Below the pieces are notes generated by a model, which did not search any database, was not told the origin of the DNA, and saw nothing but the letters and a program-made list of their open reading frames with translations. A stretch of 63,745 nucleotides of DNA, the filler included, from Hausera hauseri (lineage: Eukaryota): NCBI GenBank assembly GCA_046269625.1. It is 10 parts of 10 records of this genome, joined end to end, with 100 filler letters (N's around TTAATTAATTAA, not from the genome) between each part and the next. Parts side by side here need not be neighbours in the genome. Positions count along the whole stretch, not along the records: positions 59,107 to 63,745 come from JBJURY010492909.1; 9 more parts are not named here. One strand, given 5' to 3'. How positions within the stretch are numbered: the stretch's first letter is position 1; each line of letters begins with the position of its first letter. A program made the translations under genes and the position numbers. Shown here one piece after another: positions 60,339-61,559 of the stretch.

Positions 60339-61559
60339 TTAACTGCTCCATAACTGCAAACTCATGGTGGAAAACTGTCCAACTATTTGAACTTCTGGGT
60401 TCCATTTAAACATTAGTTTTGACACTTCACCAAACGCTCCTGTACTTCTTGAATCTTTCGTAGATGGTGGGTATAATTGTACTTTCAGTGTCTGAGATAT
60501 AGAAACGTTTTTGATATAGGACATCTCGGATCCTGCATCCATTAAGGCATAAGCTTCCCAATCCTCAATCATGATTTTGGCGAAGGGTCTTCCTTCTTTT
60601 ACTCTTCCGAAACATTTTGATGTATCCTTTGAGCGTTTCACCGCCGATATTTTGTGTTTATTAATTCGAATTTCGGAGGAAGATACTATATTCTCCGACA
60701 ATTGTCTTAATTCTTCGTTTGAATATAACCCATTATTTTCTATGTGCAATTCTTCCCCTTCATTTGTACTAATTAATGGTTCTCGATAGTTAGTGTGTAA
60801 TTCACTATTATGGATGGTTTTTAACCTCGATTTGTCCAAAACCGTTGATCTAGTTTCTATATTGCGAGATTCTCTTGGAGAATATAACATTTTTGGACCA
60901 TTTGTGGATTGTCTGTAACACATTTTCCGTAGGATCCCATAACGTTTCGTTCTTTTATAAGAATCTTCAACCTTAATTGTTCTTTTATAGATTTCTGTTT
61001 GATATGAGCTCATTGATTGTTTGTCACAGTCTTCGTAGACTGGAGCGGTAGAAGGTAGCATAGGCAATGGCGTTTTAATGACAGAGTACATCTTGTGTCT
61101 GTTTATTCCTGAAAGTACTTCTCCTCCCTTAGTCTCGTCATCATCTGATTTATTTCTTCGCGTAATAGGTTTAGTAAACTTTCGCTTCCGTAAGAATATT
61201 GGCCTTTCTTTTCGTTTACGATTATAGTAGCCGACACGGCGTGCTATGTCCGATTTCCATTTATTTTCTTCGTATGCTTTTAAAAATTTTTCAAAACGCG
61301 TTATGATCACAGTCAATATCTTGCAAGAAAATCCAGTCAACGTAAATATTTCGTACCCATTAATTACGGCTTGGATGACTGCTTTAATTATTTGTATTAG
61401 AAAGTATATCGCTAAAAATCCGGATGCGGTTTGTCCGAAAATCAAAAACCTTCCCCAAGTTCTGTAGAGTATTTTGGTGGTTACCCGTTGATAATGATTT
61501 ATGCCAAGTAGAGATTCCCATTTAGCTTGGTATCGTGTACCGCCTACTACAGAAGCCAT
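60339..61559 (-). CDS. Unbroken 406-codon frame joining Env TM and tail to the protease
   Basis: A single ORF contains both the env TM and YALMDAGSEMSYI. Confidence 0.85.
   Translation of the reverse strand: MASVVGGTRYQAKWESLLGINHYQRVTTKILYRTWGRFLIFGQTASGFLAIYFLIQIIKAVIQAVINGYEIFTLTGFSCKILTVIITRFEKFLKAYEENKWKSDIARRVGYYNRKRKERPIFLRKRKFTKPITRRNKSDDDETKGGEVLSGINRHKMYSVIKTPLPMLPSTAPVYEDCDKQSMSSYQTEIYKRTIKVEDSYKRTKRYGILRKMCYRQSTNGPKMLYSPRESRNIETRSTVLDKSRLKTIHNSELHTNYREPLISTNEGEELHIENNGLYSNEELRQLSENIVSSSEIRINKHKISAVKRSKDTSKCFGRVKEGRPFAKIMIEDWEAYALMDAGSEMSYIKNVSISQTLKVQLYPPSTKDSRSTGAFGEVSKLMFKWNPEVQIVGQFSTMSLQLWSS

Follow-up and report, generated by a model that had tools for sequence, protein, structure and literature searches.

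Three decayed elements with env between gag and pol

The window, i.e. the whole stretch of DNA analysed, comprises 63,745 nucleotides of the Hausera hauseri assembly GCA_046269625.1 in ten contig pieces separated by 100-base N spacers. It contains three copies of a retroelement, designated A, B, and C, which lie on separate contigs (Table 1). All copies in the window are dead. B and C share 79% identity over 3.8 kb; A is far more distant. Across the copies the order is gag, accessory region, signal-like segment, env, membrane segment, linker, protease, spacer, and reverse transcriptase (RT), with the integrase located downstream in copy A.

Table 1. Retroelement features in the window (positions count along the whole stretch).
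Feature	Positions	Strand	Remarks
Copy A piece	1-6692	+	
Copy A signal-like hydrophobic segment and decayed env ectodomain	590..2347	+	signal-like segment 662-751
Copy A ORF: env membrane segment, linker, protease motif	2348..3448	+	366 aa; membrane segment 2372-2443, YPDL 3077, protease motif 3320
Copy A post-protease spacer, then integrase	3457..5548	+	RT and RNase H missing (internal deletion)
Copy B piece	6793 to about 14900	-	
Copy B env, membrane segment, linker, protease, spacer	6793..9830	-	PTAP 7845-7834, protease motif 7347
Copy B weak ubiquitin-like match, helical region, internal signal-like segment	9832..10842	-	signal-like segment 9888-9832
Copy B long accessory region	10809..13490	-	~890 codons, no family match
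Copy B gag with CCHC knuckle	13494..14477	-	knuckle 13769-13719, ends at stop 13496-13494
Second gag/accessory fragment	37948..39633	-	66% identical to B, stop 39154-39152
RNase H-integrase fragment, separate contig piece	56641..58149	-	resembles the same relatives; possibly linked to copy C
Copy C piece	59107-63745	-	
Copy C reverse transcriptase	59140..59613	-	PF00078, E-value 8e-35; in-frame stops
Copy C aspartic protease	60268..60590	-	motif 60539-60528, frame break near 60367-60377
Copy C env C-terminus, membrane segment, tail/linker, first half of protease	60339..61646	-	435 aa
Copy C env tail/linker	60580..61355	-	basic, purifying selection
Copy C predicted env transmembrane segment	61356..61448	-	residues 67-97, hydropathy
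Copy C gB-type env ectodomain	61449..63110	-	PF24664; six in-frame stops and frame breaks
Copy C accessory region upstream of env	63117..63745	-	cut by window end

The env of all three copies matches PF24664 (Pfam) and is classed as gB-type by this family match. The assignment to Ty3/gypsy is made by domain order plus PF00078/PF17917. In copy C the protease is followed by RT and in copy A by the integrase; no single copy holds all four domains, and the whole order is present in the chains of the database relatives described below. RT of copy C lies in the frame that follows the protease and a spacer of ~220 aa, and the contig ends at 59107. This spacer is conserved, and no sequence match to it was found in Pfam or PDB. 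At 4212-4418 of copy A the spacer is joined almost directly to the integrase, with RT and RNase H deleted. Other gypsy-type pol fragments are located at 36450-37960, 42037-43750, and 50336-52440, the first and the last being 66% identical. No LTR-like match was detected between the 5' side of B and the 3' sides of A or of the RNase H-integrase piece, and no copy has both ends on one contig.

Copy B places env between gag and pol. Its gag carries one CCHC knuckle (PF00098, E-value 5e-7) and is followed by the accessory region, a weak ubiquitin-like match, a helical stretch, the signal-like segment, and env. The ubiquitin-like match (10788-10633, E-value 0.001) is below the Pfam cut-off, and a single-sequence model of the ubiquitin-like and helical region reached a pLDDT of only 33. 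Pfam gave no match to a Bcl-2 domain before env. From the ubiquitin-like match to the signal-like segment all parts of copy B are in the frame of the env start, and several stops and frame breaks interrupt the stretch from env to the spacer. Across the break of B near 12449 the second gag copy keeps a single frame, the junction at 10845-10808 is covered by B only, and at the accessory-env junction, just before the signal segment, C is one base off from B. As gag, the accessory region, and an in-frame signal segment lie upstream of it in copy B, env is internal. The original prediction had treated Env-Pol as the sole unit. This does not hold, since the accessory region and the internal signal-like segment precede env in frame in B, and five of the 13 long database relatives have a Gag zinc-knuckle (CCHC) motif upstream of env in the same ORF.

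Open frames and selection between env and protease

Copies A and C had been predicted to keep an unbroken frame from the env membrane region through a linker to the protease motif, and both frames exist. In copy C the frame is open from stop to stop, and counted from its first Met (61559, residue 30) it has the predicted 406 codons; in copy A a start at 2438 gives 336 codons. The starts of the two ORFs are not real gene starts: env homology extends upstream through in-frame stops, and both ORFs open within the C-terminal part of PF24664 (E-values 1e-20 for C and 1e-7 for A in Pfam). Hydropathy analysis gave a single hydrophobic peak for each ORF, the one of copy A at residues 9-32, and the env profile still covers ~30 aa past the membrane segment. 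The protease motif is DAGS in copy C (60539), DTAA in copy A, and DTGS in copy B. Both ORFs terminate inside the protease at frame breaks, their final residues being off-frame, and in copy C the protease, the spacer, and RT carry on in the next frame. Neither ORF contains an N spacer.

The linkers have no stop in the open frame, compared with 13 and 25 stops in the other frames of C and 22 and 18 in those of A, and none of the 20,000 shuffles of either linker had any open frame. From the membrane segment to the catalytic Asp the distance is 272 aa in C and 292 aa in A, which exceeds the predicted linker length of ~200-250 aa. A basic, Pro-rich composition had also been predicted; the linkers are basic (K+R 22% in C and 16% in A), but they are Pro-rich only locally (P 5% and 8%). 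Outside the membrane region (36% over 112 aa) A and C could not be aligned, and linker-to-linker alignment gave no significant match, in agreement with the earlier remark that the linkers barely resemble each other. With a profile of 22 natural protease domains, no degenerate second protease was found in the linker, nor was any similarity of the linker to the database relatives. As for slippery signals, heptamers of this type, counted regardless of phase, are present in all copies (three in C, eight in A, five in B), and no shift is needed.

The comparison of B with C gives direct evidence from selection that the env-protease linker is translated. In the env/protease frame the dN/dS of the linker is 0.23 (95% CI 0.14-0.34; 208 codons), versus 0.77 and 1.28 in the shifted frames, and its two halves are each constrained (0.26 and 0.18). 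The linker is therefore under purifying selection, and the conservation of frame anticipated in the original prediction is borne out. Elsewhere the same comparison gave values of 0.08 for the env ectodomain, 0.24 for the first part of the protease, 0.09 for the post-protease spacer, and 0.14 for the accessory region over 63410-63120. Neither do B and C share a stop after env, from which Pol would have to be reached by splicing: from the accessory region to the spacer, none of the seven stops of B coincides with any of the six of C over 1,125 codon pairs, and 11 of the 14 nearest relatives are fused.

In run X1, 13,897 contigs match copy C, 426 of them at an identity of at least 99%, and none spans C. 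Nearly all of the run X1 depth shows other letters at two env stops of C, indicating that these stops are private lesions of C in a large family. Among 40 of the 1,493 differences from this run, three fall within 60540-61330; none of them creates a stop, and they are too few to count.

Relatives and known systems

The env-to-protease frame of copy C was used as a query in a HMMER search against 1.84 billion representatives, which gave 504 matches. The best 150 were analysed; 122 of them reach the membrane segment, and the 28 partial ones were dropped. Word-index protein searches yielded no longer relatives, in contrast to the full HMMER search, and locus scans found no relatives in viral, metagenome, and prokaryote collections. 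Among the best 150 of the 504 matches, 11 of the 14 relatives above 100 bits run in frame to the protease motif, while none of the 108 weaker ones continue to it, these being mostly stand-alone envs of ~650 aa. P0008, P0013, and P0015 end 5-47 aa past the match, which may reflect a contig end, a lesion, or a true stop. A protease was confirmed by Pfam in 10 of the 11 fused relatives, and RT, RNase H, and integrase are present in the same chain in four of the 11 (P0003, P0005, P0018, and P0019) as well as in P0153. Six of the 13 long relatives have a signal-like segment with 128-1,336 in-frame residues ahead of it.

A quick tree of 53 rows was built from the 13 best matches, every third of the remainder, and the three copies. 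In it the fused group (support 89) includes A, B, and C as a single clade (support 99). Given this position and the fusion in 11 of the 14 nearest relatives, the env-protease fusion in A and C was most likely inherited rather than convergent. The two copies had been presented as two divergent lineages, but they do not constitute independent cases.

Some further features of the relatives were observed. P0004, P0005, P0006, P0011, P0012, and P0153 contain two to seven protease-like motifs per chain, some of them after the integrase, and several of these chains also terminate in a further hydrophobic segment. P0003, an env-protease-RT-integrase polyprotein, is listed under a Flavobacteriaceae metagenome bin as a hypothetical protein and is probably animal DNA inside that bin.

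The layout with env inside a polyprotein is not new, and A, B, and C are a further, decayed lineage of a published layout. Nematode non-canonical ERVs reportedly have a continuous gag-env-pro-pol ORF. In these elements env precedes pol (Sacco et al. 2022, as cited in PMC13524379). Env is described in frame between gag and pol in the planarian Burro elements (PMC6431247), and GAG-ENV-POL elements of the gB type are described in nematodes, bryozoans, and flatworms (Chary and Hayashi, eLife, PMC13524379). Membership of A, B, and C is assigned by layout and env family, the Burro and eLife elements being compared by description.

According to Arkhipova and Yushenova (2019, PMC6431247), Burro/GYPSM1 is a giant Ty3/gypsy element with an in-frame Env between gag and pol in one polyprotein, and its Env matches mononegavirus-like fusion glycoproteins. 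The copies described here resemble it in the fusion-glycoprotein type of env and in its place between gag and pol, in frame with the protease, and also in the CCHC Gag, the long accessory region, and an extra protease-RT region; the ubiquitin-like domain before env may be a further likeness, the match here being weak. Burro differs in having two or three CCHC knuckles versus one here, and in matches to Bcl-2, MATH, BIR, ankyrin, and dUTPase that were not found here; the possible stop after Gag and the death of all copies set the present elements apart from Burro as described there (PMC6431247). With the GAG-ENV-POL 'errantiviruses' of the HSV/gB type our copies share the gene order, the gB-type env, the Ty3/gypsy-type pol, and the presence of many copies (PMC13524379). 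None of the words 'fused', 'frameshift', 'polyprotein', 'late domain', 'ESCRT', 'cytoplasmic', or 'budding' appears in the main text of that paper, which thus does not treat the frame or the tail. The stand-alone chuvirus-like gB-type envs (PF24664), which are BEL/Pao- and gypsy-associated (PMC13524379), have a homologous ectodomain and membrane region, and their tails are enriched in YPxL, like the linkers here, and in P(T/S)AP. They differ in being separate proteins with short tails, none of the 108 among the best 150 of 504 matches reaching a protease motif. The available text of PMC11410931 contains nothing on env.

A possible Env-Pol polyprotein and its alternatives

We consider it likely that A, B, and C are dead Ty3/gypsy copies whose gB-type env, flanked by gag and pol, continues in frame into the protease, and that their active ancestors made Env and Pol as one membrane-threaded polyprotein. 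The window contains no intact copy, and the fused group has a support of only 89 in the quick tree, both of which count against this reading. Further points against it are the three near relatives that end soon after the match, the one-base difference of C from B at the accessory-env junction, the coverage of the 10845-10808 junction by B only, and the close relatives that start shortly before env and have no Gag motif. The original prediction that Pol is tethered to the glycoprotein tail survives in that the coding sequence of Pol continues the frame of the env anchor, uninterrupted by a stop or frame change, as judged by the selection on the linker, the lack of a stop shared by B and C, and the fused relatives; it has to be widened in that the unit is not Env-Pol alone.

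From what is generally known of class III fusogens and of retroviral proteases, the internal signal would direct the ectodomain of env to the ER lumen. The lone membrane segment, with a topology predicted from hydropathy, would halt the transfer and keep the linker and Pol on the cytosolic side, and the N-terminus of Env would be freed by signal peptidase. Env trimers could concentrate the tethered proteases and bring about their dimerisation, and the dimerised proteases would cut RT, RNase H, and integrase free at the membrane where budding takes place. The cytoplasmic tail of Env would then correspond to the initial part of the linker, and it may recruit ESCRT via YPxL or P(T/S)AP. With one mRNA as the only source of both, Env and Pol would be synthesised in equal amounts, i.e. 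1:1, while Gag would be made either at the same ratio or in excess from a read-through stop.

It had been suggested that no Gag-Pol frameshift would be needed. As framed this is not supported, since two copies share a stop just after Gag. The TAG of copy B (13496-13494) and the TAA of the second gag copy (39154-39152) fall on one and the same codon of the alignment, ~85 aa past the knuckle, and the second copy stays in the same frame beyond its stop. Calculated post hoc, the probability of such a coincidence is 0.03 if all 454 codon pairs are counted and 0.10 for the 148 stop-near pairs. This stop could be a candidate read-through site and, if real, read-through would give an excess of Gag over the 1:1 Env:Pol chain. 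A title- and abstract-level search, lying mostly outside the subscription literature, found no report of read-through in gag-env-pol elements.

It is conceivable, though in our judgement unlikely, that gag ends at this stop as a real terminus and that occasional read-through produced an accessory-Env-Pol polyprotein, one recoding event setting the excess of Gag over 1:1 Env:Pol. Such an arrangement keeps the Env-protease fusion and shifts the recoding step upstream. Besides the shared stop position and the in-frame continuation of the second copy, which is 66% identical to B, it is favoured by five close relatives (P0004, P0005, P0006, P0008, and the unbroken 4,844-aa P0153) that begin only 130-185 aa before env and have no Gag motif in the env ORF. 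However, the coincidence was noticed post hoc in two copies only, B has a one-base length difference within four bases of the stop, and the copies disagree on the downstream frame. Moreover, the Gag knuckle and env are in one ORF in five relatives, and Burro is likewise described as having Gag and env in one ORF (PMC6431247).

We regard it as very improbable that the frame is continuous and yet most Pol was made apart, from a spliced RNA or from an internal start in the linker, with the fusion as a minor product. Copy C does have eight Met codons between the membrane segment and the protease motif, and the unalignable linkers of A and C would fit such a scheme. However, both linker halves are under selection, a crude scan found no acceptor-like site in the linker of C, and as no stop ends Env, every Env chain would bear Pol regardless. 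It is hardly credible that the open frames survived by chance or arose from assembly joins in decayed DNA, even though all copies are riddled with lesions and the window consists of joined contigs. No spacer lies within either ORF, and the third-position excess and the agreement among the three copies and among 11 unrelated database proteins argue against it; the shuffles and the fused relatives already refute it.

PTAP and YPXL connect retroviral Gag to TSG101 and ALIX (PMC8952333). YPxL was found in six of the 13 membrane-to-protease linkers, compared with a shuffle mean of 0.57 (0 of 2,000 shuffles as high), in a set of homologues that are not independent and in which the linkers of P0004 and P0007 may contain a degenerate protease. 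The linkers hold it at 2.5 per 1,000 aa and the remainder of these proteins at about 0.35. YPxL would likewise be compatible with tyrosine sorting motifs. No enrichment is seen for YxxL lacking the proline (8/13 linkers; mean 6.1), for PPxY (1/13; 1,820 of 5,000 shuffles as high), or, in the linkers alone, for P(T/S)AP (1/13; 333 of 5,000 as high). Copy A has YPDL and copy B PTAP, with which STAP of copy C (61052-61041) aligns; the lack of an exact late motif in C counts against a late-motif role. On the Gag side, no late motif was found in four gag/accessory frames of B, and one was found in six regions of the relatives. From their sequence, the late-domain-like motifs may act as budding signals, and we give about even chances to the enrichment in the tails being functional.

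In the last 75 residues of the stand-alone envs P0022-P0152 (n = 74; 620-720 aa), YPxL was found in 17 of 74 (shuffle mean 1.45) and P(T/S)AP in nine of 74 (mean 0.52).

How elements with Env in the polyprotein set the ratio of shell to envelope to enzyme, and how they bud, is an unexplained point on which the Gag stop and the tail motifs both bear; if true, read-through after Gag together with late motifs in the Env tail would answer both. The Gag stop would then be a read-through codon whose single recoding event yields accessory-Env-Pol, and the Env tail, not Gag, would bear the ESCRT motifs and tow protease and polymerase into the particle. Tail late motifs would be general in gB-type retroelement envs, and such a division of labour would be undescribed for retroelements. 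This combined scheme we hold to be unlikely. A search at the level of titles and abstracts, again mostly beyond the subscription literature, found no report of late motifs in retroelement Env tails.

The window also contains unrelated sequences. On the minus strand, 18597-20992 holds the decayed remains of a Polinton/adintovirus-like, protein-primed DNA polymerase B that has an endonuclease VII motif, and 45673-47197 an intron-less, frame-broken piece of an O-GlcNAc transferase that is 59-65% identical to animal OGTs; a tree gave it no placement, and it looks like a retrocopy. An intron-less PIKK kinase C-terminus of 469 codons with a FATC domain, which we take to be SMG1-like, lies at 32434-33843 (minus strand), and part of it is duplicated at 34225-34815 (94%). 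A pyrimidine-rich satellite of 4-base units occupies about 5.7 kb at 26500-32200, and a tandem array of about 64-80-base units is located at 49259-49873.
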